A stretch of DNA of 64,000 nucleotides from Escherichia coli. Its GTDB lineage: Bacteria > Pseudomonadota > Gammaproteobacteria > Enterobacterales > Enterobacteriaceae. The notes under the pieces are model-generated. The model was not told the DNA's origin, ran no database searches, and saw only the letters and a program-made list of their open reading frames with translations. Of this stretch, positions 48,253 to 64,000 are shown one piece after another. A program made the position numbers and the translations under genes. The DNA lies in NCBI RefSeq assembly GCF_030013595.1, contig NZ_CP122768.1, one strand, 5' to 3'. How positions within the stretch are numbered: the stretch's first letter is position 1; each line of letters opens with the position of its first letter.

Positions 48253-48286
48253 TTTAATCATCCTGGTTAAGCAAATTTGGTGAATT

Positions 48287-48467: not shown

Positions 48468-49382
48468 ATGTCAGCCAAAGTATGGGTTTTAGGGGATGCG
48501 GTCGTAGATCTCTTGCCAGAATCAGACGGGCGGCTACTGCCTTGTCCTGGCGGCGCGCCAGCTAACGTTGCGGTGGGAATCGCCAGATTAGGCGGAACAA
48601 GTGGGTTTATAGGTCGGGTCGGTGATGATCCTTTTGGTGCGTTAATGCAAAGAACGCTGCTAACTGAGGGTGTCGATATCACGTATCTGAAGCAAGATGA
48701 ATGGCACCGGACATCCACGGTGCTTGTCGATCTGAATGATCAAGGAGAACGTTCATTTACGTTTATGGTCCGCCCCAGTGCCGATCTTTTTTTAGAGACG
48801 ACAGACTTGCCCTGCTGGCGACATGGCGAATGGTTACATCTCTGTTCAATTGCGTTGTCTGCCGAGCCTTCGCGTACCAGCGCATTTACTGCGATGACGG
48901 CGATCCGGCATGCCGGAGGTTTTGTCAGCTTCGATCCCAATATTCGTGAAGATCTATGGCAAGACGAGCATTTGCTCCGCTTGTGTTTGCGGCAGGCGCT
49001 ACAACTGGCGGATGTCGTCAAGCTCTCGGAAGAAGAATGGCGACTTATCAGTGGAAAAACACAGAACGATCGGGATATATGCGCGCTGGCAAAAGAGTAT
49101 GAGATCGCCATGCTGTTGGTGACTAAAGGTGCAGAAGGGGTGGTGGTCTGTTATCGAGGACAAGTTCACCATTTTGCTGGAATGTCTGTGAATTGTGTCG
49201 ATAGTACTGGGGCGGGAGATGCGTTCGTTGCCGGGTTACTCACAGGTCTGTCCTCTACGGGGTTATCTACAGATGAGAGAGAAATGCGACGAATTATTGA
49301 TCTTGCTCAACGTTGCGGAGCGCTTGCAGTAACGGCGAAAGGGGCGATGACAGCGCTGCCATGTCGACAAGAACTGGAATAG
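48468..49382 (+). CDS. cscK: fructokinase (PfkB/ribokinase family)
   Basis: 304-aa ORF with GAGDAF motif. Confidence 0.9.
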   Translation: MSAKVWVLGDAVVDLLPESDGRLLPCPGGAPANVAVGIARLGGTSGFIGRVGDDPFGALMQRTLLTEGVDITYLKQDEWHRTSTVLVDLNDQGERSFTFMVRPSADLFLETTDLPCWRHGEWLHLCSIALSAEPSRTSAFTAMTAIRHAGGFVSFDPNIREDLWQDEHLLRLCLRQALQLADVVKLSEEEWRLISGKTQNDRDICALAKEYEIAMLLVTKGAEGVVVCYRGQVHHFAGMSVNCVDSTGAGDAFVAGLLTGLSSTGLSTDEREMRRIIDLAQRCGALAVTAKGAMTALPCRQELE

Positions 49383-49453: not shown

Positions 49454-50701
49454 ATGGCACTGAATATTCCATTCAGAAATGCGTACTATCGTTTGGCATC
49501 CAGTTACTCATTTCTCTTTTTTATTTCCTGGTCGCTGTGGTGGTCGTTATACGCTATTTGGCTGAAAGGACATCTAGGATTAACAGGGACGGAATTAGGT
49601 ACACTTTATTCGGTCAACCAGTTTACCAGCATTCTATTTATGATGTTCTACGGCATCGTTCAGGATAAACTCGGTCTGAAGAAACCGCTCATCTGGTGTA
49701 TGAGTTTCATTCTGGTCTTGACCGGACCGTTTATGATTTACGTTTATGAACCGTTACTGCAAAGCAATTTTTCTGTAGGTCTAATTCTGGGGGCGCTCTT
49801 TTTTGGCCTGGGGTATCTGGCGGGATGCGGTTTGCTTGACAGCTTCACCGAAAAAATGGCGCGAAATTTTCATTTCGAATATGGAACAGCGCGCGCCTGG
49901 GGATCTTTTGGCTATGCTATTGGCGCGTTCTTTGCCGGTATATTTTTTAGTATCAGTCCCCATATCAACTTCTGGTTGGTCTCGCTATTTGGCGCTGTAT
50001 TTATGATGATCAACATGCGTTTTAAAGATAAGGATCACCAGTGCATAGCGGCGGATGCGGGAGGGGTAAAAAAAGAGGATTTTATCGCAGTTTTCAAGGA
50101 TCGAAACTTCTGGGTTTTCGTCATATTTATTGTGGGGACGTGGTCTTTCTATAACATTTTTGATCAACAACTCTTTCCTGTCTTTTATGCAGGTTTATTC
50201 GAATCACACGATGTAGGAACGCGCCTGTATGGTTATCTCAACTCATTCCAGGTGGTACTCGAAGCGCTGTGCATGGCGATTATTCCTTTCTTTGTGAATC
50301 GGGTAGGGCCAAAAAATGCATTACTTATCGGTGTTGTGATTATGGCGTTGCGTATCCTTTCCTGCGCGTTGTTCGTTAACCCCTGGATTATTTCATTAGT
50401 GAAGCTGTTACATGCCATTGAGGTTCCACTTTGTGTCATATCCGTCTTCAAATACAGCGTGGCAAACTTTGATAAGCGCCTGTCGTCGACGATCTTTCTG
50501 ATTGGTTTTCAAATTGCCAGTTCGCTTGGGATTGTGCTGCTTTCAACGCCGACTGGGATACTCTTTGACCACGCAGGCTACCAGACAGTTTTCTTCGCAA
50601 TTTCGGGTATTGTCTGCCTGATGTTGCTATTTGGCATTTTCTTCCTGAGTAAAAAACGCGAGCAAATAGTTATGGAAACGCCTGTACCTTCAGCAATATA
50701 G
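49454..50701 (+). CDS. cscB: sucrose:H+ symporter (MFS, LacY-like)
   Basis: 415-aa 12-TM ORF. Confidence 0.9.
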   Translation: MALNIPFRNAYYRLASSYSFLFFISWSLWWSLYAIWLKGHLGLTGTELGTLYSVNQFTSILFMMFYGIVQDKLGLKKPLIWCMSFILVLTGPFMIYVYEPLLQSNFSVGLILGALFFGLGYLAGCGLLDSFTEKMARNFHFEYGTARAWGSFGYAIGAFFAGIFFSISPHINFWLVSLFGAVFMMINMRFKDKDHQCIAADAGGVKKEDFIAVFKDRNFWVFVIFIVGTWSFYNIFDQQLFPVFYAGLFESHDVGTRLYGYLNSFQVVLEALCMAIIPFFVNRVGPKNALLIGVVIMALRILSCALFVNPWIISLVKLLHAIEVPLCVISVFKYSVANFDKRLSSTIFLIGFQIASSLGIVLLSTPTGILFDHAGYQTVFFAISGIVCLMLLFGIFFLSKKREQIVMETPVPSAI

Positions 50702-51143
50702 ACGTAAACTTTTTCCGGTTGTTGTCGATATCTCCATATCCCTCAACCGGAAAATAATAATACAAAAATGCTTAGCCCAACTAATAATCACCTAATCCAA
50801 ACGCCTCATTCATGTTCTGGTACAGTCGCTCAAATGTACTCCGGATACGCGGTTCGCTGATTTCCAGGACATTGTCGTCATTCAGCGACCTGTCCCGAGT
50901 ATCACGGGCCTGCGAATTCATCAAGGAATGCATTGCAGAGTGAAGTATCGAGTCACGCCATATTTCGCTATCAGGATTCTGTATGATGGTTACATCGCCC
51001 GGCCCAGGGCTGTTTAGTCATCAGCGCTTTCTGACAGTGCTGAGATTTCAACCTGTTGCAGTAAAAATGAGTAGATATAGGGCAAGTGTGCTGCCAAACC
51101 CATCTTTTACGGGGTGAAGGTAGATTTGGTTTGAAGGGTATCT

Positions 51144-51158
51144 GGTGTCCCCTGCAGA
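51144..51158. other. putative prophage att core (attR): 15-nt identity to the 3' end of tRNA-Arg argW
   Basis: Minus strand reads CTGCAGGGGACACCA, matching the argW 3' terminus as recalled, without the rest of the tRNA; lies about 70 bp from the torI-like gene. Confidence 0.45.
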
Positions 51159-51230
51159 CATCTACTTGAGGCGGCAGGGGATTGATTGGAATGGTGTTTT
51201 TTAGATGTGAAAAATATTTTACCCGCTATT

Positions 51231-51431
51231 TTACCCATTGGCGCGGCTTAAGAGCTTATTTTTGAATTCACAATGGTCACGATATAACCATCTTGCTCGC
51301 CCGTGGATAACTTTGGCTTTTGGCAGGTCGCCGGACTTAATCCGGTCATAGATGAAGGTTTTACCGAATCCAGTATCGGCCATGATGAATTTCAAATCAA
51401 CCAGTGAATCAGGCTGTAGTTCGTGTTGCAT
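51231..51431 (-). CDS. torI: AlpA/Xis-family excisionase (recombination directionality factor), TorI-like
   Basis: 66-aa ORF at the prophage edge next to the att core; size and position match KplE1 TorI; identity from recall. Confidence 0.6.
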   Translation of the reverse strand: MQHELQPDSLVDLKFIMADTGFGKTFIYDRIKSGDLPKAKVIHGRARWLYRDHCEFKNKLLSRANG

Positions 51432-51562
51432 GAGTGCTATCTCCGAATAGGGAATCGAACCTGCAAATCAGGCAATAAAAAACCGCCATCAGGCGGCTTG
51501 GTGTTCTTTCAGTTCTTCAATTCGAATATTGGTTACATTGTTTTAATATATGAATAAATAAA

Positions 51563-51775
51563 TTAGCTTTTTTCGTTGCCTTCGCGTTCTTTATTAATTT
51601 TAACAAACTCGTTTTTACCACGCTCTCCAAATGCGTCTTTAGAGTCGTTGTATCCGCAATCGCAGCACACATAATCACCAGACCATCCACGCATTGTTTT
51701 TTCTTTTGCAATATTTCCAGAACCGCATTTTGGACAAGACATATCACTACCTCCAAAGCATGAGTGAGATGACAA
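51563..51775 (-). CDS. small Cys-rich zinc-finger protein (lambda Ea8.5 position)
   Basis: 70-aa ORF with CPKCGSG...CCDCGYN zinc-ribbon-like motifs. Confidence 0.4.
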   Translation of the reverse strand: MSSHSCFGGSDMSCPKCGSGNIAKEKTMRGWSGDYVCCDCGYNDSKDAFGERGKNEFVKINKEREGNEKS

Positions 51776-51838
51776 CGTAACATTGATTGGAGATTAACAA
51801 TAGATTGCTGATGTAAAAGATATGTATAAGCTTCGCTT

Positions 51839-52393
51839 TCAAAGTGGAGGCTCTGGTAGCGGCATCCAGTGTGACGGCTCACATACCACCTCAACACCGT
51901 TCATGTAAAAGAATTGAAATAACCCTTTACCTTTGTGAAACCCTACCATCTGCTCTTTTGTGTCTGAACAATAAACCAAAACATCTTCTTCGTTTGGCAT
52001 CCACTCACTACAGCTTATCCAACCATCTGGAATTACCGGAGAGTTGCCCGACATCTCATTCAACTTGTAAGTCTGGCTTACAGGTTTGGCTTCCAGTTCT
52101 GCAATGCGCTTACCTCCATCCGCGATTACTCCCTCGTAATATTCACGCTGCTCGTTGAGTTTTGATTTTGCTTCCTCAAGCTCAACTCTCAGCTTCCCTA
52201 CCGTTAGCGCAATATCCTCGTTCTCCTGGTCACGGCGTTTGATGTATTGCTGGTTTCTTTCCCGTTCATCCAGCAGTTCCAGCACAATCGATGGTGTTAC
52301 CAATTCATGGAAAAGGTCTGCGTCAAATCCCCAGTCGTCATGCATTGCCTGCTCTGCCGCTTCACGCAGTGCCTGAGAGTTAATTTCGCTCAC
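51839..52393 (-). CDS. Ead/Ea22-like early protein (DUF551-type)
   Basis: 184-aa ORF at the Ea22 position of the lambda early-left operon. Confidence 0.55.
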   Translation of the reverse strand: MSEINSQALREAAEQAMHDDWGFDADLFHELVTPSIVLELLDERERNQQYIKRRDQENEDIALTVGKLRVELEEAKSKLNEQREYYEGVIADGGKRIAELEAKPVSQTYKLNEMSGNSPVIPDGWISCSEWMPNEEDVLVYCSDTKEQMVGFHKGKGLFQFFYMNGVEVVCEPSHWMPLPEPPL

Positions 52394-52611
52394 TTCGAAC
52401 CTCTCTGTTTACTGATAAGTTCCAGATCCTCCTGGCAACTTGCACAAGTCCGACAACCCTGAACGGCCAAGCGTCTTCGTTCATCTATCGGATCGCCACA
52501 CTCACAACAATGAGTGGCAGATATAGCCTGGTGGTTCAGGCGGCGCATTTTTATTGCTGTGTTGCGCTGTAATTCTTCAATTTCTGATGCTGAATCAATG
52601 ATGTCTGCCAT
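52390..52611 (-). CDS. TraR/DksA-family C4 zinc-finger protein
   Basis: 73-aa ORF with CxxC-17-CxxC motif (CCECGDPIDERRRLAVQGCRTCASC). Confidence 0.55.
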   Translation of the reverse strand: MADIIDSASEIEELQRNTAIKMRRLNHQAISATHCCECGDPIDERRRLAVQGCRTCASCQEDLELISKQRGSK

Positions 52612-52709
52612 CTTTCATTAATCCCTGAATTGTTGGTTAATACGCTTGAGGGTGAATGCGAATAATAAAAAAGGAGCCTGTAGCTCCATGATGATTTTGT
52701 TTTTCATGC

Positions 52710-52991
52710 TCACCGTTCCTTAAAGACGCCGTTTAACATGCCGATCGCCAGGCTTAAATGAGTCGGTGTGAATCCCATCAGCGTTACCGTTTCGCGGTGC
52801 TTCTTCAGTACGCTACGGCAAATGTCATCGACGTTTTTATCCGGAAACTGCTGTCTGGCTTTTTTGATTTCATAATTAGCCTGACGGGCAATACTGCGAA
52901 GGGCGTTTTCTTGCTGAGGTGTCATTGAACAAGTCCCATGTCGGCAAGCATAAGCACACAGAATATGAAGCCCGCTGCCAGAAAAATGCAT
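52710..52991 (-). CDS. hypothetical phage early protein
   Basis: 93-aa ORF, co-oriented in the early-left operon; start uncertain. Confidence 0.35.
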   Translation of the reverse strand: MHFSGSGLHILCAYACRHGTCSMTPQQENALRSIARQANYEIKKARQQFPDKNVDDICRSVLKKHRETVTLMGFTPTHLSLAIGMLNGVFKER

Positions 52992-53001
52992 TCAGTGGTT
53001 G

Positions 53002-53193
53002 TCATACCTGGTCTCTCTCATCTGCTTCTGCTTTCGCCACCATCATTTCCAGCTTTTGTGAAAGGGATGTGGCTAACGTATGAAATTCTTCGTCTGTTTC
53101 TACTGGTATTGGCACAAACCTGACTCCAATTTGAGCGAGGCTATGTGCCATCTCGATACTCGTTCTTAACTCAACGGGAGATGCTTTGTGCAT
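53002..53193 (-). CDS. hypothetical phage early protein (lambda orf63 position)
   Basis: 63-aa ORF. Confidence 0.35.
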   Translation of the reverse strand: MHKASPVELRTSIEMAHSLAQIGVRFVPIPVETDEEFHTLATSLSQKLEMMVAKAEADERDQV

Positions 53194-53354
53194 ACAGCCC
53201 CCCGTTTATTATTTATCTCCTCAGCCAGCCGCTGGGCTTTCAGTGGATTTTGGATAACAGAAAGGCCGGGAAATACCCAGCCTCGCTTTGTAACGGAGTA
53301 GACGAAAGTGATCGCGCCTACCCGGATATTATCGTGAGGATGCGTCATCGCCAT
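53166..53354 (-). CDS. hypothetical phage early protein (lambda orf60a position)
   Basis: 62-aa ORF overlapping exo stop. Confidence 0.3.
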
Positions 53355-54025
53355 TGCTCCCCAAATACAAAACCAATTTCAGCCAGTGCCTCGTCCATTT
53401 TTTCGATGAACTCCGGCACCATCTCGTCAAAACTCGCCATGTACTTTTCATCCCGCTCAACCACGACATAATGCAGTCCTTCACGCTTCATACGCGGGTC
53501 ATAGTTGGCAAAGTACCAGGCATCTTTTCGCGTCACCCACATGCTGTACTGCACCTGGGCCATGTAAGCCGACTTTATGGCCTCGAAACCACCGAGCCGG
53601 AACTTCATGAAATCCCGGGAGGTAAACGGGCATTTCAGCTCAAGGCCATTGCCGTCACTGCATAAACCATCGGGAGAGCAGGCGGTGCGCATACTTTCGT
53701 CGCGATAGATGATCGGGGATTCAGTAACATTCACGCCGGAAGTGAATTCAAACAGGGTTCTGGCGTCGTTCTCGTACTGTTTTCCCCAGGCCAGCGCCTT
53801 AGCATTAACTTCCGGAGCCACACCGGTGCAAACCTCAGCCAGCAGGGTGTGGAAGTAGGACATTTTCATGTCAGGCCACTTCTTTCCTGAGCGGGGCTTT
53901 GCTATCACGTTGTGAACTTCTGAAGCGGTGATGACGCCGAGCCGTAATTTGTGCCACGCATCATCCCCCTGTTCGACAGCTCTCACGTCGATCCCGGTAC
54001 GCTGCAGGATAATGTCCGGTGTCAT
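53345..54025 (-). CDS. exo: lambda-type 5'-3' exonuclease (Red-alpha)
   Basis: 226-aa ORF, YqaJ-type recombinase exonuclease; followed by bet and gam. Confidence 0.9.
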
Positions 54026-54807
54026 GCAGCCACCTTCTGTTCAGAGGCTTTCTGTTTCAGGAATCCAAGAGCTTTCACTGCTTCGGCCTGTGTCAGTTCT
54101 GACGATGCGCGAATGTCGCGGCGAAATATCTGGGAACAGAGCGGCAATAAGTCGTCATCCCATGTTTTATCCAGGGCGATCAGCAGAGTGTTAATCTCCT
54201 GCATGGTTTCATCGTTAACCGGAGTGATGTCGCGTTCCGGCTGGCGTTCTGCAGTGTGTGCAGTATTTTCGACAATGCGCTCGGCTTCATCCTTGTCATA
54301 GATACCAGCAAATCCGAAGGCCAGACGGGCACACTGAATCATGGCTTTATGCCGTAACATCCGTTTGGGATGCGACTGCCACGCCCCCGTGATTTCTCTG
54401 CCTTCGCGAGTTTTGAATGGTTCGCGGCGGCATTCATCCATCCATTCGGTAACGCAGATCGGATGATTACGGTCCTTGCGGTAAATCCGGCATGTACAGG
54501 ATTCATTGTCCTGCTCAAAGTCCATGCCATCAAACTGCTGGTTTTCATTGATGATGCGGGACCAGCCATCAACGCCCACCACCGGAACGATGCCGTTCTG
54601 CTTATCAGGGAAGGCGTAAATTTCTTTCGTCCACGGATTAAGGCCGTACTGGTTGGCGACGATCAACAATGCGATGAACTGCGCATCGCTGGCATCACCT
54701 TTAAATGCCGTCTGGCGAAGAGTGGTGATCAGTTCCTGTGGGTCGACAGAATCCATGCCGACACGTTCAGCCAGCTTCCCTGCCAGCGTTGCGAGTGCTG
54801 TACTCAT
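54022..54807 (-). CDS. bet: single-strand annealing protein Bet (Red-beta)
   Basis: 261-aa ORF; overlaps exo start as in lambda. Confidence 0.9.
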
Positions 54808-54812
54808 CCGTT

Positions 54813-55109
54813 TTATACCTCTGAATCAATATCAACCTGGTGGTGAGCAATGGTTTCAACCATGTACCGGATGTGTTCTGCCATGCGCTCCTGAAACTCA
54901 ACATCGTCATCAAACGCACGGGTAATGGCTTTTTTGCTGGCCCCGTGGCGTTGCAAATGATCGATGCATAGCGATTCAAACAGGTGCTGGGGCAGGCCTT
55001 TTTCCATGTCGTCTGCCAGTTCTGCCTCTTTCTCTTCACGAGCGATCTGCTGGTAGTGACGCGCCCAGCTCTGAGCCTCAAGACGATCCTGAATGTAATA
55101 AGCGTTCAT
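54813..55109 (-). CDS. gam: host-nuclease (RecBCD) inhibitor Gam (short form)
   Basis: 98-aa [24 protein letters not shown]... matching lambda GamS as recalled. Confidence 0.9.
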
Positions 55110-55184
55110 GGCTGAACTCCTGAAAATGGCTGTGAAAATAGCGCCCGCGAAATGCCAGGCTGATTAGGAAAACAGGAAAGGGGG

Positions 55185-55328
55185 TTAGTGAATGCTTTTG
55201 CTTGATCTCAGTTTCAGCATTAATATCCATTTTTTATAAGCGTCGACGGCTTCACGAAACATCTTTTCATCGCCAATAAAAGTGGCGATAGTGAATTTAG
55301 TCTGGATAGCCATAAGTGTTTGATCCAT
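55185..55328 (-). CDS. kil: host-killing protein Kil
   Basis: 47-aa [12 protein letters not shown]... within ORF 55185-55454; overlaps cIII by 32 nt as in lambda. Confidence 0.8.
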
Positions 55329-55461
55329 TTTTTGGGACTCCTGGCTGATTAAGTATGTCGATAAGGCGTTTCCATCCGTCACGTAATTTACGGGTGATTC
55401 GTTCAAGTAAAGATTCGGAAGGGCAGCCAGCAACAGGCCACCCTGCAATGGCATATTGCAT
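55297..55461 (-). CDS. cIII: cIII (FtsH protease inhibitor)
   Basis: Manual translation gives [54 protein letters not shown] (54 aa); below ORF-track cutoff. Confidence 0.85.
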   Translation of the reverse strand: MQYAIAGWPVAGCPSESLLERITRKLRDGWKRLIDILNQPGVPKNGSNTYGYPD

Positions 55462-55533
55462 GGTGTGCTCCTTATTTATACATAACGAAAAACGCCTCGA
55501 GTGAAGCGTTATTGGTATGCGGTAAAGCCGCGC

Positions 55534-55845
55534 TTAGGCGGCTGATGTTTCTTCTTTCAGGCTTTCGAGATATTTACGTGGGTCGTCGTAACATTGGCAT
55601 TCGCTGTACCAATCCACCCAGCGATCAGTAAGCCCCACCTCTGATAAATCTTCATCGGTAAGGCTCTCATCCCACATCTCAAGGCCGTTAGCATTGCAGT
55701 AATCAGGCTTGATGTTGTTGTCATACTGAAAGGCGTCATAATCAGCCAGTGCGTCCATCAGGCGAACACCCTCTTCAACACTTGCCACTTCTACAATGAA
55801 CGGCTTCATAGGTACTTGCGGGATATGCCAGACACGTAATTTCAT
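55534..55845 (-). CDS. hypothetical acidic protein (lambda ea10 position)
   Basis: 103-aa ORF, strongly acidic, Trp/Cys-containing. Confidence 0.5.
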   Translation of the reverse strand: MKLRVWHIPQVPMKPFIVEVASVEEGVRLMDALADYDAFQYDNNIKPDYCNANGLEMWDESLTDEDLSEVGLTDRWVDWYSECQCYDDPRKYLESLKEETSAA

Positions 55846-55989
55846 ATTTCCTCCGTCAAAAAAATGCCCTCACACTGGAGGGCAAAGAAGATTTCCAATA
55901 ATCAGAACAAGTCGGCTCCTGTTTAGTTACGAGCGACATTGCTCCGTGTATTCACTCGTTGGAATGAATACACAGTGCTTATTCGCAGC

Positions 55990-56316
55990 CTACATAATCA
56001 TTCCGGTTATTATTACCATTTCAATATCGCTATCTTTCATAATGATTGGAGTTGAGTTATCAACTTTACTTTTACTCCATTTTCCTGCATCAGTTTTTAC
56101 CGCTCCACAATAAGAAAGCCAATCATCATCACAATGTTCTGGATCACTAATTCTGACAAGAACACGTGATAGTGCTTTTTCGATACTTTCATCACAATTA
56201 GCATTTGTGTAATTGCCGTGAGACAATTTCAAATCGTTAACTTCATCTTCATTGGCATCAAAAATATAGATTTCAGTCGACTCTGGAACATTTTCATAAA
56301 CCATTAAAACTTTCAT
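55990..56316 (-). CDS. hypothetical protein, AT-rich moron-like gene
   Basis: ORF 55990-56397; likely start ATG 56316 (MKVLMVYENVPE...) after GGGG RBS; low GC relative to flanks. Confidence 0.45.
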   Translation of the reverse strand: MKVLMVYENVPESTEIYIFDANEDEVNDLKLSHGNYTNANCDESIEKALSRVLVRISDPEHCDDDWLSYCGAVKTDAGKWSKSKVDNSTPIIMKDSDIEMVIITGMIM

Positions 56317-56356
56317 TTTTACCCCATATTGTTTATGCCAAAAATAAAGGCCACCA

Positions 56357-56557
56357 TTAGGCAGCCTTGTTGTTCTGTTTACCAAGTTCTCTGGCAATCA
56401 TTGCCGTCGTTCGTATTGCCCATTTATCGACATATTTCCCATCTTCCATTACAGGAAACATTTCTTCAGGCTTAACCATGCATTCCGATTGCAGCTTGCA
56501 TCCATTGCATCGTTTGAATTGTCCACACCATTGATTTGTATCAATAGTCGTAGTCAT
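56357..56557 (-). CDS. ral: Ral-like small Cys-rich protein (restriction alleviation), tentative
   Basis: 66-aa ORF with CGQFKRCNGC motif at the ral position and size; identity from recall. Confidence 0.5.
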   Translation of the reverse strand: MTTTIDTNQWCGQFKRCNGCKLQSECMVKPEEMFPVMEDGKYVDKWAIRTTAMIARELGKQNNKAA

Positions 56558-56627
56558 ACGGATAGTCCTGGTATTGTTCCATCACATCCTGAGGATGCTC
56601 TTCGAACTCTTCAAATTCTTCTTCCAT
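56541..56627 (-). CDS. possible 28-aa acidic leader peptide (MEEEFEEFEEHPQDVMEQYQDYPYDYDY)
   Basis: Short ORF with strong GAGGTGA RBS 6 nt upstream of ATG; its stop overlaps the ral-like start. Confidence 0.25.
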   Translation of the reverse strand: MEEEFEEFEEHPQDVMEQYQDYPYDYDY

Positions 56628-56685
56628 ATCTCACCTCAAATAAGTGGTTTGCTGCCTAATTTCATTTTCTGGCGACCAACACAAG

Positions 56686-56958
56686 TCATCTTGCTGTCAG
56701 CTGTTTGGATTTCCTGTAGCCTGCCGCGTAAATGGCTACATTTGGAAGACAAGTTGAGCCTTCATATTTTCTGGTCAACGTTGTCAGTGTTATTACTTCT
56801 GCTCTCATTACTGGTTTGCGTTTGCATTGTAAGACCACTCGTGAAGGGGTTGGCCTGTGTAGCTTGTCAGAGCTGATCGCCTCCTGACTTTGCAGGTTTG
56901 CACGACGAGCTCTACGGCGAGAAGCTGCGGTGCCTTTAAATTCTGTTTTTCTGGACAT
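56686..56958 (-). CDS. N-like transcription antiterminator (P22 gene 24 type)
   Basis: ORF 56686-57030; start refined to ATG 56958 after GGGAGGA RBS; arginine-rich motif AASRRRARRANLQ; C-terminus ...IYAAGYRKSKQLTAR. Confidence 0.75.
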   Translation of the reverse strand: MSRKTEFKGTAASRRRARRANLQSQEAISSDKLHRPTPSRVVLQCKRKPVMRAEVITLTTLTRKYEGSTCLPNVAIYAAGYRKSKQLTAR

Positions 56959-57056
56959 AGATTCCTCCCGAATAAACTTTGGCGATGCAATCTCGAAGCT
57001 CCTCCTGAGACGGTTGCTTCGGCATTGCATCCCACAGCTTATATGGTTGGGTGATC

Positions 57057-57070
57057 TGGCTTTTCAGCCA
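57057..57070 (-). promoter_or_regulatory. putative nutL boxB hairpin
   Basis: Transcript-sense UGGCUGAAAAGCCA stem-loop between the putative pL and N start. Confidence 0.35.
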
Positions 57071-57148
57071 CGTAGTCGAGTGTTCGACGTTGTTTAAAGA
57101 GCCTGCCAGTCTGCTCCGTTTGGCTTACAGCGTCCTGCTGACGGTTAA

Positions 57149-57177
57149 ATAGTACGATATGTACTTTATTGGGTCAA
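57149..57177 (-). promoter_or_regulatory. putative pL promoter
   Basis: TTGACC -35 and TACTAT -10 with 17-nt spacer on minus strand upstream of N. Confidence 0.35.
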
Positions 57178-57397
57178 TACAATTTGTTCTAAAATGGGGT
57201 GATTTTTTATAACGCTTTGTATTTAATAGTGTTGTTTTTTAGCGTGGGTGTATCGCCTCGGCGATGTAAGGAGAGATCAGAATTGCGTGGTTTAGTGAGT
57301 TGTATCTATTTATTTTTCAATAAATACATTTGGTTATGTGTCTTTAGGTGGGGGCGTGAGGCAAAGAAAACCCGGCTCGGTGGCCGGGTTGATGGGA

Positions 57398-58255
57398 TTA
57401 TCGTTTATTTCTTTGATGTTTCTTTGCTGACTCAGCTTGAGTGTTTCCATACCTGCGTTTACCGCTATTGTTTTTTCCTCTAGGCTTGCCTTTTTTTCGA
57501 TCTTCCCACCAGTCAGGTGCCGGGTCTGGCTCAACATGTAAAGCATCGGCAAGTCCTGATATCAAGCTGTATGACTGAACTCCATCAATGTGCTCTGACA
57601 GTGATGGGGTAACATTCTGTCTTAGTGGATCAAGAATAAAATCAATACCTTTAATTCTGGCGTGTTTGGCGGCAGGCACAAAGTCTGAGTCCCCAGCAAC
57701 AAGGACAATTACATCAACAAGTTTTTCATAAGCTAAAGTCGTGATATCCATCCCTAGCTTGATATCAACTTGTTTTTGTTTGATGTCATAGTAAAAATCA
57801 TCATTTGTCAGTTCATCCCATTTTTTCGTTCCTTTCATCAGAGCATCAAGGGAGAATGTAGTTAGTTGCCATCGCTTATTATCAACAAGATTCCCTAATC
57901 TTAAGGCTGTTTTTCGAGTTTTTCTTAACTCTTCATGCAGCTCCGTTCTCAGAATATATGATTTTTCGAGTTTGAAATTCTTGCGACCAGGCGTCTTATT
58001 GCCAGGCTCAGGAAGTGGAAGGCGTGTTTGAATGTCGAGTGGTGGACAGTCATAGAAGTAAATTCTATAAAGCTCAAGCGGTTCCCTACGTTCTTGTGAT
58101 TGACGTTTTCCATTAAGATGGGAAAGAACCATTGACCATATTACTTTCATTATGCATTGCGCAGTCAGTTCATGCTCGGCGAAGTGTTTACGATGCGTAG
58201 CATGAACACGCTGCATGAAAAAACCCGCATCAATTAAAATTGCTGCTTTCTTCAT
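57398..58255 (-). CDS. NYN/LabA-like (PIN-fold) nuclease-domain protein with Lys/Arg-rich C-terminal tail; candidate prophage exclusion/defence protein in the rex position
   Basis: 285-aa ORF: N-terminal AILIDAGFF and central VLVAGDSDFVPAAKHARIKGIDF NYN-type motifs; basic tail; between cI and pL/N; AT-rich. Confidence 0.75.
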   Translation of the reverse strand: MKKAAILIDAGFFMQRVHATHRKHFAEHELTAQCIMKVIWSMVLSHLNGKRQSQERREPLELYRIYFYDCPPLDIQTRLPLPEPGNKTPGRKNFKLEKSYILRTELHEELRKTRKTALRLGNLVDNKRWQLTTFSLDALMKGTKKWDELTNDDFYYDIKQKQVDIKLGMDITTLAYEKLVDVIVLVAGDSDFVPAAKHARIKGIDFILDPLRQNVTPSLSEHIDGVQSYSLISGLADALHVEPDPAPDWWEDRKKGKPRGKNNSGKRRYGNTQAESAKKHQRNKR

Positions 58256-58382
58256 AAGAGTCCCAAAAAAATAGCCCAGAGCCGTTATGCAGATATTAAC
58301 AATTGTCTGCGAACGGGGCTGGGCTTGGTTTAATTAATCTATGCCAAGTTGACTGTGCCGTCAACATAAAACTTACTTCCTA

Positions 58383-59036
58383 TCACCCAAACGTCTCTTC
58401 AGGCCACTGACTAGCGATAACTTTCCCCACAACGGAACAACTCTCATTGCATGGGATCATTGGGTATTGTGGGTTTAGTGGCTGTAGAAACACCTGACCG
58501 CTATCCCTGATCAGTTTCTTGAAGGTAAACTCATCACCACCAAGTCTGGCTATACAGAAATCGCCTGGCTCAACAGCCTGCTCAGGGTCAACCAGAATTA
58601 ACATCCCGTCAGGAAAGCTGGGCTTGGATCCTGTTGGTGCGGTCATGGAATTACCTTCAACCTCAAGCCAGAATGCAGAGCCACTGGCTTTTTTGGTTGT
58701 GCTTACCAATCTCTCCGCATCGCCTTTGGTAAAGGTTCTGAGTTCTGGAGAGAACATCCCAGCCTGAACATGAGAAAATACAGGGTACTCATATTGTTTT
58801 TTAACTGGGGCCGATGAGTATTCGCCAACAGGTGAAAATGTCCCGTCGTGGTTGAATGATATGTTATCAATACCAAGGTATTTAAACACCACACCAATAT
58901 CACTAAGAGATGGATGACGAGATCCGCGCAACCAGTGTCCAATCCCACCCTGCGTCATACCTAGCTCTTCGGCTAACTTCTCTTGAGTTATGCCGAGCTC
59001 TTTCATTCTGGATCTAGCCAGTTCATACCATTTCAT
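58383..59036 (-). CDS. cI: cI-type prophage repressor (HTH plus S24 LexA-like peptidase domain)
   Basis: ORF 58383-59084; probable start ATG 59036 ([10 protein letters not shown]...) 7 nt after AAGGA; C-terminal GNSMTAP...KKL...PLNPQYPMI autocleavage domain. Confidence 0.85.
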
Positions 59037-59152
59037 TTTCATGTCCTTATTATTACGCTCTGTACTGGAACCATCAATGCACAATGTGTATTTTTGCTTG
59101 TATTTGGAAAGTACATATTGTATTTTTTATTCGAGGTTACTATGGAGGGCAT

Positions 59153-59368
59153 ATGAGCAACCTACGAAAATATCGAGAGTCACTGAATATCTCTCAAACA
59201 ACACTTGCTAAGGCAGTTGGATGCACACAGGGAGCTATCGGACATTGGGAATCTGGTCGTCGCTTCCCAGACCTTAAAACATGCCGTGCTCTTGTTGCGT
59301 GCCTAAATAAGTTAGGCGCAAAAGTAAGTCTTGATGACGTGTTCCCGCCGGAACACAAAGCCGCTTAA
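59153..59368 (+). CDS. cro: Cro-like HTH repressor
   Basis: ORF 59084-59368; start refined to ATG 59153 after GGAGGG; HTH QTTLAKAVGCTQGAIGHWE; divergent from cI. Confidence 0.7.
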   Translation: MSNLRKYRESLNISQTTLAKAVGCTQGAIGHWESGRRFPDLKTCRALVACLNKLGAKVSLDDVFPPEHKAA

Positions 59369-59509
59369 TAAGCGGAGCCGCTCTTTGTAACAACGGACAT
59401 TCGTCCTACGTCGCTGAAAAGCGAGTCCCAAGATATCTGACCAACTAAGGCCATATGCGTTTCCACGCATACCTTTCAACTAACTATTCACTATTGGAAA
59501 TCTTAAGAA

Positions 59510-59806
59510 ATGGAACGAACAAGTTACAGCAAACTATCACAGCGTGACGTTGATCGCGCAGAAACAGATTTACTCATCAACCTATCAACGCTTACCCAGC
59601 GCGGTCTGGCAAAGATGATTGGCTGTCATGAATCGAAGATAAGCAGAACGGACTGGAGATTTATTGCTTCGGTCTTGTGTGCTTTCGGAATGGCATCAGA
59701 CATCAGTCCGATTAGCAGGGCTTTTAAGTATGCGCTTGATGAAATCACAAAGAAAAAATCCCCGGCCGCCACCGAGGATTTTAAGCAAATTGATATGCAA
59801 TTCTGA
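59510..59806 (+). CDS. cII: CII-like transcriptional activator
   Basis: 98-aa ORF; C-terminus ...KKKSPAATEDFKQIDMQF resembles lambda CII ...KKRPAATERSEQIQMEF. Confidence 0.8.
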   Translation: MERTSYSKLSQRDVDRAETDLLINLSTLTQRGLAKMIGCHESKISRTDWRFIASVLCAFGMASDISPISRAFKYALDEITKKKSPAATEDFKQIDMQF

Positions 59807-59838
59807 GGGAATTACTGGATCAATCTACAGGGGTCATT

Positions 59839-60738
59839 ATGACAAATACAGCAAAAATACTCAACTTCTGCAGAGGTAACTTTGCCGAACAGGAGCGTAA
59901 TGTGGCAGATCTCGATGATGGTTACGCCAGACTATCAAATATGCTGCTTGAGGCTTATTCAGGCGCAGATCTGACCAAGCGACAGTTTAAAGTGCTGCTT
60001 GCCATTCTGCGTAAAACCTATGGGTGGAATAAACCAATGGACAGAATCACCGATTCTCAACTTAGCGAGATTACAAAGTTACCTGTCAAACGGTGCAATG
60101 AAGCCAAGTTAGAGCTCGTCAGAATGAATATTATCAAGCAGCAAGGCGGCATGTTTGGACCAAATAAAAACATCTCAGAATGGTGTATCCCTCAAAACGA
60201 GGGAAAATCCCCTAAAACGAGGGATAAAACATCCCTCAAATTGGGGGATTGCTATCCCTCAAAACAGGGGAACACAAAAGACACTAATACAAAAGAAAAA
60301 AGAAAAGATTATTCGTCAGAGAATTCTGGCGAATCCTCTGACCAGCCAGAAAACGATCTTTCTGTGGTTAAACCGGATGCTGCAATTCAGAGCGGCAGCA
60401 AGTGGGGAACAGCAGAAGACCTGACCGCCGCAGAGTGGATGTTTGACATGGTGAAGACCATCGCGCCATCAGCCAGAAAACCGAATTTTGCTGGGTGGGC
60501 TAACGATATCCGCCTGATGCGTGAACGTGACGGACGTAACCACCGCGATATGTGTGTGCTTTTCCGCTGGGCCTGCCAGGACAACTTCTGGTCCGGTAAC
60601 GTGCTGAGTCCGGCCAAACTCCGCGACAAGTGGACCCAGCTCGAAATCAACCGTAACAAGCAACAGGCAGGCGTGACAGCCAGCAAACCAAAACTCGACC
60701 TGACAAACACTGACTGGATTTACGGGGTGGATTTATGA
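59839..60738 (+). CDS. O: replication initiator O
   Basis: 299-aa ORF essentially identical to lambda O as recalled; contains ori iterons. Confidence 0.95.
   Translation: MTNTAKILNFCRGNFAEQERNVADLDDGYARLSNMLLEAYSGADLTKRQFKVLLAILRKTYGWNKPMDRITDSQLSEITKLPVKRCNEAKLELVRMNIIKQQGGMFGPNKNISEWCIPQNEGKSPKTRDKTSLKLGDCYPSKQGNTKDTNTKEKRKDYSSENSGESSDQPENDLSVVKPDAAIQSGSKWGTAEDLTAAEWMFDMVKTIAPSARKPNFAGWANDIRLMRERDGRNHRDMCVLFRWACQDNFWSGNVLSPAKLRDKWTQLEINRNKQQAGVTASKPKLDLTNTDWIYGVDL
60187..60270 (+). repeat. ori-lambda iterons (four approx. 18-bp repeats ATCCCTCAAAACGAGGGA-like) followed by AT-rich segment
   Basis: Directly visible repeats tccctcaaaacgaggga / tcccctaaaacgaggga / tccctcaaattggggga / tccctcaaaacagggg inside O. 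Confidence 0.7.
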
Positions 60739-61436
60739 AAAACATCGCCGCACAGATGGTTAACTTTGACCGTGAGCAGATGCGTCGGATCGCCAACAAC
60801 ATGCCGGAACAGTACGACGAAAAGCCGCAGGTACAACAGGTAGCGCAGATCATCAATGGTGTGTTCAGCCAGTTACTGGCAACTTTCCCGGCGAGCCAGG
60901 CTAACCGGGACCAGAACGAACTGAACGAAATCCGCCGCCAGTGGGTGCTGGCTTTCCGGGAAAACGGGATCACCACGATGGAACAGGTTAACGCAGGAAT
61001 GCGCGTAGCCCGTCGGCAGAATCGACCATTTCTGCCATCACCCGGGCAGTTTGTTGCATGGTGCCGGGAAGAAGCATCCGTTACCGCCGGACTGCCAAAC
61101 GTCAGCGAGCTGGTTGATATGGTTTACGAGTATTGCCGGAAGCGAGGCCTGTATCCGGATGCGGAGTCTTATCCGTGGAAATCAAACGCGCACTACTGGC
61201 TGGTTACCAACCTGTATCAGAACATGCGGGCCAATGCGCTTACTGATGCGGAATTACGCCGTAAGGCCGCAGATGAGCTTGTCCATATGACTGCGAGAAT
61301 TAACCGTGGTGAGGCGATCCCTGAACCAGTAAAACAACTTCCTGTCATGGGCGGTAGACCTCTAAATCGTGCACAGGCTCTGGCGAAGATCGCAGAAATC
61401 AAAGCTAAGTTCGGACTGAAAGGAGCAAGTGTATGA
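60735..61436 (+). CDS. P: replication protein P (DnaB helicase loader)
   Basis: 233-aa ORF; ATGA overlap with O stop. Confidence 0.95.
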   Translation: MKNIAAQMVNFDREQMRRIANNMPEQYDEKPQVQQVAQIINGVFSQLLATFPASQANRDQNELNEIRRQWVLAFRENGITTMEQVNAGMRVARRQNRPFLPSPGQFVAWCREEASVTAGLPNVSELVDMVYEYCRKRGLYPDAESYPWKSNAHYWLVTNLYQNMRANALTDAELRRKAADELVHMTARINRGEAIPEPVKQLPVMGGRPLNRAQALAKIAEIKAKFGLKGASV

Positions 61437-61723
61437 CGGGCAAAGAGGCAATTATTCATTACCTGGGGACGCATAATAGCTTCTGTGCGCCGGACGTTGC
61501 CGCGCTAACAGGCGCAACAGTAACCAGCATAAATCAGGCCGCGGCTAAAATGGCACGGGCAGGTCTTCTGGTTATCGAAGGTAAGGTCTGGCGAACGGTG
61601 TATTACCGGTTTGCTACCAGGGAAGAACGGGAAGGAAAGATGAGCACGAACCTGATTTTTAAGGAGTGTCGCCAGAGTGCCGCGATGAAACGGGTATTGG
61701 CGGTATATGGAGTTAAAAGATGA
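61433..61723 (+). CDS. ren: Ren (Rex exclusion protection protein)
   Basis: 96-aa ORF immediately after P with ATGA overlap. Confidence 0.85.
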   Translation: MTGKEAIIHYLGTHNSFCAPDVAALTGATVTSINQAAAKMARAGLLVIEGKVWRTVYYRFATREEREGKMSTNLIFKECRQSAAMKRVLAVYGVKR

Positions 61724-61749
61724 CCATCTACATTACTGAGCTAATAACA

Positions 61750-61780
61750 GGCCTGCTGGTAATCGCAGGCCTTTTTATTT
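61750..61780 (+). terminator. tR2-like rho-independent terminator
   Basis: caggcctgctggtaatcgcaggcc hairpin followed by TTTTTATTT between ren and ninB. Confidence 0.5.
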
Positions 61781-61796
61781 GGGGGAGAGGGAAGTC

Positions 61797-62237
61797 ATGA
61801 AAAAACTAACCTTTGAAATTCGATCTCCAGCACATCAGCAAAACGCTATTCACGCAGTACAGCAAATCCTTCCAGACCCAACCAAACCAATCGTAGTAAC
61901 CATTCAGGAGCGCAACCGCAGCTTAGACCAAAATCGGAAGCTTTGGGCTTGCCTTGGTGACGTTTCGCGTCAGGTTGAATGGCATGGTCGCTGGCTGGAT
62001 GCAGAAAGCTGGAAGTGTGTGTTTACCGCAGCATTAAAGCAGCAGGATGTTGTTCCTAACCTTGCCGGGAATGGCTTTGTGGTAATAGGCCAGTCAACCA
62101 GCAGGATGCGTGTAAACGAATTTGCGGAGCTATTAGAGCTTATACAGGCATTCGGTACAGAGCGTGGCGTTAAGTGGTCAGACGAAGCGAGACTGGCTCT
62201 GGAGTGGAAAGCGAGATGGGGAGATCGGGCTGCATGA
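61797..62237 (+). CDS. ninB: NinB recombination protein (Orf)
   Basis: ORF 61779-62237; start refined to ATG 61797 after GGGGGAGAGGG. Confidence 0.85.
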   Translation: MKKLTFEIRSPAHQQNAIHAVQQILPDPTKPIVVTIQERNRSLDQNRKLWACLGDVSRQVEWHGRWLDAESWKCVFTAALKQQDVVPNLAGNGFVVIGQSTSRMRVNEFAELLELIQAFGTERGVKWSDEARLALEWKARWGDRAA

Positions 62238-62761
62238 CTATCAAATCAAATACGCCAGCACACGACAAGGACTGCTGGCAAACGCCGCTTTGGCTTTTTG
62301 ATGCACTGGATATTGAGTTTGGATTCTGGCTGGATTCGGCAGCGAGCGACAAAAATGCTCTGTGTGCTCACTGGCTAACTGAGGCCGACGACGCGCTCAA
62401 TTCTGAGTGGGTAAGCCACGGTGCAATCTGGAATAACCCACCGTACAGCAATATCAGGCCGTGGGTGGAAAAAGCCGCTGAGCAGTGCATACAACAGCGA
62501 CAGACGGTAGTGATGCTTGTGCCAGAGGATATGTCAGTCGGATGGTTCAGCAAGGCTCTGGAGAGTGTCGACGAAGTTCGCATTATCACTGATGGACGGA
62601 TTAATTTTATCGAACCATCGACGGGGCTGGAGAAGAAGGGAAACAGCAAAGGCTCCATGCTGCTGATTTGGCGACCGTTCATCAGTCCTCGACGGATGTT
62701 TACTACCGTATCCAAAGCGGCATTGATAGCGATCGGGCAGGGCGTCAGGAGGGCGGCATGA
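62234..62761 (+). CDS. phage N6-adenine DNA methyltransferase (orphan)
   Basis: ORF 62174-62761; start ATG 62234 overlapping ninB stop; NPPY catalytic motif (IWNNPPYS). Confidence 0.8.
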
Positions 62762-62934
62762 GGCGACAGCGACGAAGTTTCACCGACATCATCTGCGAAA
62801 ACTGCAAATACCTTCCAACGAAACGCTCCAGAAATAAACGCAAGCCAATCCCAAAAGAATCTGACGTAAAAACCTTCAACTACACGGCTCACCTGTGGGA
62901 TATCCGGTGGCTAAGACATCGTGCGAGGAAATGA
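62758..62934 (+). CDS. ninE: NinE
   Basis: [27 protein letters not shown]... within ORF 62668-62934; ATGA overlap with methyltransferase stop. Confidence 0.75.
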
Positions 62935-62936
62935 CA

Positions 62937-63338
62937 ATGCTTTTAATTCAACCTGGATTTGGCCTTAGCATCAAAAAAGGACACATGTTTGGCGAGAAAG
63001 AGTCACAACGAAAAATGGTGTCTATCCGGTTGCCATTTATCAGTATTTATTGGCTAAACAGGGAGGCAACAAATTATTGGTATACATGCGCCAGAGCAGC
63101 ATTTAACGACCCTGACTGGTTTGTGAAAAACCACCATGCGGTTCGTCAGGCAAAGAGAAAGGCCAATACGACATACATGAAGGCGTATCGAAAAGCATGG
63201 AAAGAACACCGCGATCGATACCAGCAAGACATGGAAAAGCTTGAATCAGAAAACATGGAATTAAGACGAAAGCTTGGTGAAGCAAAACGAGACATTGATG
63301 CTTACAAGCGACTTTTTAATGGTGAAAGCCATGCTTAG
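62937..63338 (+). CDS. hypothetical nin-region protein with C-terminal coiled coil
   Basis: ORF 62895-63338; likely start ATG 62937 after GAGG; C-terminal QQDMEKLESENMELRRKLGEAKRDIDAYKRL heptad-like. Confidence 0.4.
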   Translation: MLLIQPGFGLSIKKGHMFGEKESQRKMVSIRLPFISIYWLNREATNYWYTCARAAFNDPDWFVKNHHAVRQAKRKANTTYMKAYRKAWKEHRDRYQQDMEKLESENMELRRKLGEAKRDIDAYKRLFNGESHA

Positions 63339-63507
63339 CCCATCCCAAACCCTTCAATACCAGAAAGAAAGCGTCGAGCGAGCTTTAACGTGCGCTAACT
63401 GCGGTCAGAAGCTGCATGTGCTTGAAGTTCATGTGTGTGAGCACTGCTGCGCAGAACTGATGAGCGATCCGAATAGCTCAATGTACGAGGAAGAAGACGA
63501 TGAATGA
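63331..63507 (+). CDS. ninF: NinF (Cys-rich)
   Basis: MLSPSQTLQYQKESVERALTCANCGQKLHVLEVHVCEHCCAELM... within ORF 63274-63507. Confidence 0.75.
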   Translation: MLSPSQTLQYQKESVERALTCANCGQKLHVLEVHVCEHCCAELMSDPNSSMYEEEDDE

Positions 63508-64000
63508 GTTAATAAATGGCAATGCCATCAAAATGACAAGCATTGAAATCGCTGAGTTGGTGGGTAAGCGTCATGACAATGTGAAACGTACCATCGAAAC
63601 GCTGGCTAAAAATGGTGTTATCCGGCTTCCTCAAATTGAGGTTTCCGAAAGAATCAATAACTTAGGGTTCAATGTTCAGTACGAGCATTACGTCTTCGAA
63701 GGCGAACAAGGTAAGCGAGATAGTATTGTTGTTGTTGCCCAGTTGTCGCCAGAGTTCACCGCTCGCCTTGTTGACCGCTGGCGAGAGCTTGAAGAAACTG
63801 CGGCTAATATCCCCAAAACGCTACCAGAAGCGTTGCGCCTTGCTGCTGATCTTGCTGAGCAGAAAATGCAACTGGAAAACCAGCTCGCAATTGCCGCACC
63901 TAAAGTTGAGTTTGCCGATCGTGTTGGCGAGGCCAGCGGAATTTTGATTGGAAACTTTGCAAAGGTTGTTGGAATTGGTCAAAACAAACTGTTTGCGTGG
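63500..64000 (+). CDS. Rha/Roi-like phage regulatory protein, 5' portion (runs off window end)
   Basis: ATG 63500 overlapping ninF stop; N-terminus MNELINGNAIKMTSIEIAELVGKRHDNVKRTIETL typical of the Phage_pRha family; open to 64000. Confidence 0.6.
   Translation, partial: MNELINGNAIKMTSIEIAELVGKRHDNVKRTIETLAKNGVIRLPQIEVSERINNLGFNVQYEHYVFEGEQGKRDSIVVVAQLSPEFTARLVDRWRELEETAANIPKTLPEALRLAADLAEQKMQLENQLAIAAPKVEFADRVGEASGILIGNFAKVVGIGQNKLFAW

Follow-up and report, generated by a model that had tools for sequence, protein, structure and literature searches.

An argW-linked early region of a probable mosaic lambdoid prophage in Escherichia coli, with a NYN-domain gene in the rexAB position

What has integrated beside the sucrose (csc) genes of this Escherichia coli chromosome, and could it still behave as a phage? 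The 64,000-nucleotide stretch analysed here (the window; contig NZ_CP122768.1) is E. coli-type chromosome in the orientation opposite to that of K-12, and its last ~12.9 kb (51143-64000, hereafter the arm) had been described, in an original prediction made from the sequence letters, as a mosaic lambdoid prophage arm at an argW/KplE1-type site. We find this description to be sound: the arm is very probably the attR-side early region of a mosaic lambdoid temperate prophage, inserted at the 3' end of argW by means of an HK620/KplE1-type IntS/TorI module. It holds 28 complete open reading frames (ORFs), all without internal stops, and one ORF truncated by the window end, and it keeps the lambdoid early order of xis, ea genes, recombination genes, cIII, N, cI, cro, cII, replication genes and nin genes. 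Genes were assigned with PHROGs, Pfam and NCBIfam and by direct comparison with lambda (NC_001416), and coverage of the arm was compared across 5,426 complete E. coli genomes and 50,697 phage records; operators, promoters and nut sites are predictions from sequence inspection and simple scans.

The argW junction and the sources of the modules

The boundary between host (csc) and prophage lies at a 15-bp attR core, CTGCAGGGGACACCA (51143-51157, minus strand), which corresponds to the 3' end of argW, a tRNA-Arg gene. The core has one exact match in the window (about 0.1 expected by chance), equals the K-12 'pawZ'/CPS-53 end, and matches 15 of the 16 nucleotides of the published KplE1 core, CTGCAGGGGACACCAT (PMC2951348). 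In a four-way alignment with K-12 CPS-53 and the loci of strains PCP06235 and NRZ100214, homology to K-12 begins exactly at the core and continues for ~340 bp through torI, and matches on the host side of the core are confined to csc-positive strains; homology to HK620 likewise begins exactly at the core. DNA identity is 97.6% to the attR/torI segment of K-12 CPS-53 over 51143-51481 (339 bp) and 99.0% to the attP-core/torI/eag segment of HK620 over 51143-51877 (735 bp). Because the K-12 and HK620 homologies both begin exactly at the core, the start that the original prediction gave to the arm and its torI/KplE1 label are correct.

The outermost prophage gene is torI (51231-51431, minus strand; phrog_66), which encodes a 66-residue excisionase (recombination directionality factor) of KplE1/HK620 type, is transcribed outward to attR and lies 73 bp from the core. 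Its product has 100% amino acid identity to HkaC/TorI of HK620, and the gene is annotated as torI in relatives. By PHROGs assignment there is no integrase among the arm genes, in keeping with the separation of excisionase and integrase genes in modules of this type. HK620 integrates at argW, and KplE1-type modules occur in HK620, Sf6, CUS-3 and other prophages (PMC2951348). PCP06235 and NRZ100214 have the identical csc|attR-torI junction, and both carry complete prophages that end in intS and a tRNA-Arg gene.

Inward of this module, the recombination and replication genes are nearly identical to those of lambda, as had been predicted (98-99.1% amino acid identity for Red, O and P), and nearly every element that the prediction had listed, from the ea genes through exo-bet-gam-kil-cIII to ral, was found in its place. 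Two long blocks match lambda at 97.5% in blastn, 52091-55542 (the C-terminus of ea22 to cIII) and 59745-62237 (O, P, ren, ninB), and there was no blastn match to lambda for N, the cI N-terminus, cro, most of cII, the methylase gene, the phrog_1511 gene or roi. The Red system is present in full, as a contiguous, full-length operon on the minus strand (53345-55109; phrog_149/252/259) made up of exo (53345-54025), bet (54022-54807; TIGR01913 above cutoff) and gam (54813-55109), whose products share 98.7%, 98.9% and 98.0% amino acid identity with lambda Exo, Bet and Gam. It is followed by kil (55185-55328, 97.9%), cIII (55297-55461, 100%) and ral (56357-56557; 98.5%, 96.9% in DNA; phrog_1055), all on the minus strand.

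On the plus strand, O (59839-60738, 98.7% amino acid identity to lambda O), the helicase loader gene P (60735-61436, 99.1%), ren (61433-61723, 99.0%) and ninB/orf (61797-62237, 99.3%) form the lambda-like replication end of the arm, and O contains four 18-bp lambda ori iterons (60187-60271; 0, 0, 0 and 1 mismatches) followed by an A/T-rich tract. The nin genes then depart from lambda where a Dam-like N6-adenine DNA methyltransferase gene (62234-62761; phrog_111, E 9e-88) replaces ninC/ninD. Beyond it stand ninE (62758-62934; 97% DNA and 93% amino acid identity to lambda), a gene for a coiled-coil protein of unknown function (62937-63338; phrog_1511), ninF (63331-63507; 96% and 88%) and a roi-type Rha plus KilAC(ANT) gene (63500-64000; PF09669 and PF03374), of which the first 167 of about 240 codons precede the window end. 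Thus the methyltransferase, ninE, ninF and Rha-like gene that had been predicted are there as well.

Taken as a whole, the comparison with lambda gives 96-97.5% DNA identity for the segment from the ea22 C-terminus to cIII and for ral, O, P, ren, ninB, ninE and ninF, and 98-100% amino acid identity for Red, Kil, CIII, Ral, O, P, Ren and NinB; the C-terminal domain of cI, the cIII RNA thermometer, the oop/pO segment and the t_imm region are also conserved. The arm differs from lambda in its HK620/KplE1-type module at argW in place of attB-lambda, with the excisionase and integrase genes at opposite prophage ends, and in N, the nut sites, the cI DNA-binding domain, cro and cII. It also has a NYN-domain gene for rexAB, a P22 gp17 homologue for ea10 and the Dam-like methylase gene for ninC/ninD, it lacks sieB, and it has roi after ninF.

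Coliphage HK620 (Lederbergvirus; NC_002730) is another near relative of the arm. Besides the attP core-torI-eag block, the order int-attP-torI-ea genes and, further on, ninE-ninF-roi is common to both, and amino acid identity reaches 98.8% for Roi, 96.6% for NinE and 96% for CIII. HK620, however, has Sak4/SSB/Abc2 recombination genes where the arm has lambda Red, and a DnaB-type helicase where the arm has lambda P; cI (35% amino acid identity), cro and cII differ, N is common over its C-terminal 24 residues only, and a 122-residue hkaS stands downstream of the HK620 cI where the arm has the NYN gene.

The original prediction had further called the arm far more complete than the K-12 remnant. 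In gene content this is true, as CPS-53, a 10.2-kb remnant (PMC2951348), has no repressor, Red, replication or nin genes; its flank is dsdC in K-12 and the csc island here. The comparison does not, however, concern two states of one element. The two occupy the same site and share the attR core and torI over 339 bp and nothing else, and we therefore rejected the arm as a less decayed copy of CPS-53. Judged by their sequences, they are different phages with a common integration module.

Across the genomes and phage records compared, the best overall matches to the arm are phages 2B8, PhiR11_1 and ev017 and the prophages of E. coli Z1323HEC0475, 493/89 and PCP06235. These cover 71-78% of the arm at 97-98% identity, including Red, cI/cro/cII, O, P, ren, ninB and the Dam gene, and 2B8 also has the NYN gene, but each lacks one or more arm segments and stays below 80% coverage; PCP06235, for example, has a gene for an SDH/Clp-fold protease in place of NYN and a GGDEF gene near torI. 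Stx-converting phages (NC_004913, 1717) share N at 97.8% amino acid identity but have other replication, immunity and late modules. Prophage loci were also fetched by exact-protein look-ups with NinF and the phrog_1511 protein, which returned many prophages, none with the mosaic of the arm. A 51-mer taken from the end of the window had no exact match in 100,044 species-representative genomes. Among the records compared, the combination of modules is therefore new, although each piece falls into a family already known and the overall plan is canonical.

Completeness, rival readings and inducibility

Several points weigh against reading the arm as part of a functional temperate prophage. No record among those compared covers at least 80% of it, with top coverage at 78% among the E. 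coli genomes and 75% among the phages, and therefore no sequenced, plaque-forming phage vouches for this exact combination. The visible sequence stops at 64000, and the complete prophage, with its second att core, intS and argW, would extend past the window. The operator, promoter and nut assignments, moreover, come from sequence inspection alone.

The alternative that survives best is a defective, cryptic prophage in which the early arm is intact and the late region or integrase has been deleted or disrupted, such that no phage would be made and only Red, NYN, Dam and the like would remain for the host. Defective prophages are common in E. coli, K-12 has only a remnant at this very site, the NRZ100214 prophage has pseudogenes among its virion genes and in ral, and our view ends at 64000. 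We nevertheless hold this reading to be unlikely, if by no means negligible, given that all 28 complete ORFs are intact over 12.9 kb in which no insertion sequence (IS) element was found, that the regulatory elements (iterons, predicted nut sites, cIII thermometer and oop) are preserved, and that PCP06235 holds an apparently complete prophage of 46 kb. The weaker alternative, that homologous recombination linked a KplE1/HK620-type remnant already resident at the site (attR-torI-eag) to another lambdoid phage, integrated or superinfecting elsewhere, so that the junction would be uninformative on the origin of the remaining phage or on the match of its integration module, could draw on the end of the HK620-identical block (99%) at 51877, after which other sources follow, and on a 48-bp linker (51473-51520; 100% identical in P22 and Stx phages, 93-98% in lambda-type phages) that is a typical mosaic crossover point, but we consider it improbable, since all lambdoid mosaics look like this, the functional phages HK620, vB_EcoP-611R6, IME10 and Dewey have the same module joined to lambdoid early genes, and in both relatives at the site the opposite prophage end carries the matching intS.

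We therefore return to the arm as the early region of a temperate prophage and ask how it might be controlled. The original prediction had regarded N and the immunity genes as heterologous to lambda, and this applies to N, the cI helix-turn-helix (HTH) domain, cro and cII but not to residues ~82-217 of cI, which are lambda. The cI gene (58383-59036, minus strand; 217 residues; phrog_4) is a chimera of a non-lambda HTH N-terminal domain and a lambda hinge plus S24 C-terminal domain: the segment 58379-58793 has 94.7% nucleotide identity to the 3' part of lambda cI, and the HTH domain is different. The S24 domain keeps the Ala-Gly cleavage site and the Ser (GNSM) and Lys (FKKL) motifs. This S24 (LexA-type) repressor gene is divergent from cro (59153-59368, plus strand; 71 residues; phrog_3/8/4), which is of HTH_3/XRE type and not of the lambda Cro fold; lambda cro gave no DNA or protein match to it, and homologous 71-residue cro genes in relatives carry HTH_3. 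The cII gene follows (59510-59806, plus strand; 98 residues; phrog_191), with 35% amino acid identity to lambda CII.

Predicted multipartite operators accompany these genes. Three operator-like 15-mers each were assigned to oL (starts at 57151, 57176 and 57209, minus strand, within a pL plus oL block at 57149-57223) and to oR (59052, 59077 and 59110, plus strand; block 59052-59124). In a 15-mer similarity search, oL and oR sites agree at 13-14 of 15 positions in the best pairs, and strict regular expressions for a TACA-N5-TGTA operator gave no match. Promoter scans placed a predicted pL (TTGACC-17-TACTAT; 57177-57149, minus strand), a pRM-like promoter (59077-59049, minus strand) and an antisense pO promoter (59864-59836, minus strand), and a terminator scan found a lambda-like oop terminator (59782-59755, minus strand), antisense to the end of cII.

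The arm also contains an N antiterminator gene (56686-56958, minus strand; 90 residues; phrog_271), with predicted nutL and nutR sites downstream of pL and pR. The gene had been called a P22-gene-24-type N, which holds for the C-terminal 24 residues; the match to P22 gp24 is confined to residues 67-90 (75%), and orthology to gene 24 was rejected because nothing beyond this stretch matches. The protein is otherwise an Stx-phage N, with 97.8% amino acid identity to N of the Stx1-converting phage NC_004913, of Stx2 phage 1717 and of 2G7b, and 100% to N of phage EC.P3. The putative nutL (57057-57103, minus strand), read from the sequence, has a boxA-like GGCTCTTTAA, a spacer hairpin and the boxB hairpin TGGCTGAAAAGCCA, and the putative nutR (59378-59424, plus strand) has boxA CCGCTCTTTG, a spacer hairpin and boxB TCGCTGAAAAGCGA. 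Layout and spacing are common to both: boxA, 'CAAC', the spacer hairpin, 'TACGT' and the boxB hairpin, whose loop is GAAAA. Between the two boxB stems (TGGCT/AGCCA versus TCGCT/AGCGA) the difference is compensatory, and the spacer hairpins stand at matching positions with unlike sequences (GTCGA-ACAC-TCGAC at 57075-57088 in nutL, GGAC-ATTC-GTCC at 59396-59407 in nutR). A dyad between boxA and boxB is reportedly, according to Neely and Friedman, a hallmark of H-19B-type nut sites, and the layout of boxA, spacer hairpin and GAAAA-loop boxB is reminiscent of H-19B.

From established lambda and HK620 biology, the following course can be proposed. In the lysogen, cI would repress pL and pR, and a single transcript would cover cI and the NYN gene and end at a t_imm-like terminator. 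Once activated in the SOS response, RecA would lead to self-cleavage of cI, after which N would antiterminate at nutL and nutR, O and P would fire the origin, and Red and Gam would promote recombination. TorI, reached by read-through from pL, would then excise the element together with IntS, whose gene, at the distal prophage end, would have a promoter of its own. That the prophage is inducible is plausible, because the Ala-Gly, Ser and Lys motifs of the cI S24 domain are kept and the early ORFs are intact. The strain probably carries an SOS-inducible prophage, and recombineering, phage typing and the restriction behaviour of the strain could be influenced by the resident Red system and the orphan Dam-like methylase. 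The arm as such is a textbook lambdoid mosaic, with its integration module from HK620, its Red and replication genes from lambda, an N of Stx-phage type and gp17 of P22 type, and has little import beyond annotation.

The late genes would follow beyond the window. PCP06235 has a ~46-kb prophage of lambda-type siphovirus, and that of NRZ100214 is of P22/HK620 type, with P22 coat, tailspike and arc/ant immI, lambda Red, O and P, and several pseudogenes; Q, lysis, packaging and virion genes are present in both. Among the fetched loci, all ten with Rha/ANT after ninF have non-lambda head genes (nine with a P22-type portal, one, L014, with another portal/head set), and the two with lambda-type heads have ninG after ninF. 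Because of these genes after ninF, and of the ninE-ninF-roi order in HK620, we lean towards a late region of P22/HK620 type, which we hold to be somewhat better than an even prospect; a lambda-like one seems unlikely, and the small remainder falls to truncation or another type.

The NYN-domain gene in the rexAB position

The only uncharacterised gene of the arm, which the original prediction had passed over, is a gene for a 285-residue NYN-domain (PIN-like) nuclease (57398-58255, minus strand; PF01936). It lies between cI and pL, where lambda has rexA-rexB, on the same strand as cI, with a separate promoter-like site (58364-58336). An intrinsic terminator follows it at the t_imm position (57390-57369, minus strand; terminator scan), and the sequence from 57271 to 57390 is 88% identical to lambda 35708-35826, just downstream of rexB. 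Across the gene itself there is no DNA similarity to lambda, and position alone is common with rexAB.

The AlphaFold (AF2) model of the protein has a mean confidence score (pLDDT) of 86.7, and its best folds in the PDB are LabA-like 2qip and the NYN endoribonuclease of MARF1 (Foldseek probability 1.00); a profile of the family gave no match against PDB sequences. Across 27 diverse homologues, D9, D69, D164, D170, D189, D191 and a GDSDF motif do not vary. The family, for which our searches brought up no function, has ~7,000 members across the gamma-proteobacteria. Copies 100% identical to that of the arm occur in 54 phage records, 48 of which are Stx2a-converting phages, and in a prophage whose cI, cro and N are those of lambda, an identical protein stands in for rexAB. 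Elsewhere, a Pseudomonas syringae homologue is found at a prophage end, beside a probable integrase, and a Proteus homologue adjoins glmS.

Two readings of this gene may be weighed. It could be a single-gene exclusion or abortive-infection system of the prophage, an RNase activated by superinfecting phage, which we put forward tentatively. Or it could be an RNase of the lytic cycle or of housekeeping, acting for example in host mRNA turnover or in the processing of phage transcripts, and not a lysogen-expressed exclusion gene; this we regard as a serious contender, if a little short of an even chance. The latter would fit the family's occurrence as a stand-alone chromosomal gene near glmS in Proteus, the PADLOC result, which for NYN was limited to weak, partial, sub-threshold matches (HEC-09, E 2e-4; NYN, E 1.4e-3), and our literature search, in which nothing relevant was found on NYN genes of lambdoid immunity regions or on a part for them in defence against phages. 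The genetic context, however, speaks against it. The gene stands on the cI strand, between cI and the t_imm-like terminator and with its own promoter-like site, and so matches rexAB, a gene pair expressed in lysogens, in both position and orientation; in the prophage of lambda immunity, rexAB is replaced by an identical copy of the NYN gene; and relatives hold other cargo in the rex position, including the SDH/Clp-fold protease. It is reasonable to suppose that NYN may have an exclusion function expressed in the lysogen. Borne at full identity by many Stx2a-converting phages, NYN in the rex position is the one lead of this locus worth following.

Other genes, host flank and minor observations

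The remaining genes of the leftward operon lie on the minus strand. Next to torI is a gene for an eag-like zinc-ribbon protein of 59 residues (51563-51742; phrog_2945), 98.3% identical in amino acids to HkaD Eag of HK620, and then an ea gene of Ea22/DUF551 type (51839-52393; 184 residues; phrog_250/368/60), the N-terminal 121 residues of whose product are 82% identical to lambda Ea22. A gene for a TraR/DksA-type zinc finger (52390-52611; TIGR02419, phrog_54) is the equivalent of lambda orf73; its product has 98.6% amino acid identity to that of an ORF unannotated in the lambda RefSeq record NC_001416 (30395-30613), which we take to be orf73. Three small lambda b-region genes follow at 52710-53348 (orf61-like, orf63/DUF1382 and orf60a/DUF1317; phrog_303, 292 and 1998; 88-100% amino acid identity to lambda). 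The alignment between the orf61-like gene and lambda is split over two frames, suggesting that the lambda reference differs by a frameshift. Within the cIII segment, the cIII RNA thermometer was recovered at 55416-55474 (minus strand; Rfam RF01804, Lambda_thermo; 88.5 bits, E 6.6e-21). Between cIII and ral lie a homologue of P22 gp17, a superinfection-exclusion escape gene (55534-55845; PF17420 GP17, E 6e-55; phrog_1510), in the position of lambda ea10, and a gene for a small protein of unknown function (55990-56316; 108 residues; phrog_4658) that has no lambda counterpart. An NCBIfam scan of ten left-arm proteins gave few informative matches for small phage proteins.

In the rightward operon, a gene homologous to that of the Dam-like methyltransferase and 98% identical to it, at locus L005, carries PF05869 (Dam). 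PADLOC, run on nine accessory proteins, returned above threshold nothing but orphan-methyltransferase models, for Dam.

Upstream of the arm, homology and annotation transfer identify evgSA, emrKY, dsdA, a truncated dsdX and the csc sucrose genes, and tRNA genes in the order Lys-Val-Val and Ala-Ala lie at 3.9-7.1 kb of the window, in which no tRNA-Arg gene was found. The csc island, with cscA (46819-48261, minus strand), cscK (48468-49382) and cscB (49454-50701), the prophage-proximal csc gene, lies next to dsdA, where K-12 has dsdC and dsdX. In the annotation of a relative, the truncated dsdX adjoins the csc repressor gene. Between cscB and attR, a short ORF (50781-50933, minus strand) corresponds to a fragment that carries the annotation of a truncated DUF4942 pseudogene in NRZ100214. 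Lying on the host side of the core, it is probably what is left of an island that occupied argW earlier.

Two records met in the comparisons deserve a remark. Phage EC.P3 (L034, PQ657771.1) shares the N-pL-NYN segment at 97% DNA identity, and the cI N-terminal domain to cII, Dam, phrog_1511 and roi at 99.5-100%, but has another left arm and integrase and lacks every lambda-homologous segment of the arm. This 33-kb 'complete genome' is without the cI C-terminal domain, O-P-ren-ninB, ninE and ninF, and it looks like an assembly or read-filtering artefact because a phage without replication genes is implausible. The other, NZ_CP130669.1 from E. coli SM107, is 111 kb in length, a plasmid-like size, and covers 71% of the arm at 97.8%; a phage-plasmid or an error in contig assignment could account for it.

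Lastly, local alignment found a 16-nucleotide exact copy of argW positions 45-60 (T-arm, TTGCAGGTTCGATTCC) at 51451-51466 (minus strand), 19 nucleotides upstream of torI. It is conserved in K-12 CPS-53 and HK620, and overlaps the cII-box/'phage integration' promoter annotated in HK620 (HK620 1664-1702, window 51438-51476). Consecutive segments of argW (45-60, and 61-75 as the core) are thus split by a ~293-bp block that contains torI, a layout that would result if a longer tract of argW homology had been interrupted by the insertion of torI. The 48-bp segment just inward of this copy contains a hairpin and T-run terminator; the segment is annotated as a terminator in P22 and is identical in other phages besides P22 and the Stx phages, and we read it as a conserved linker at a mosaic boundary.

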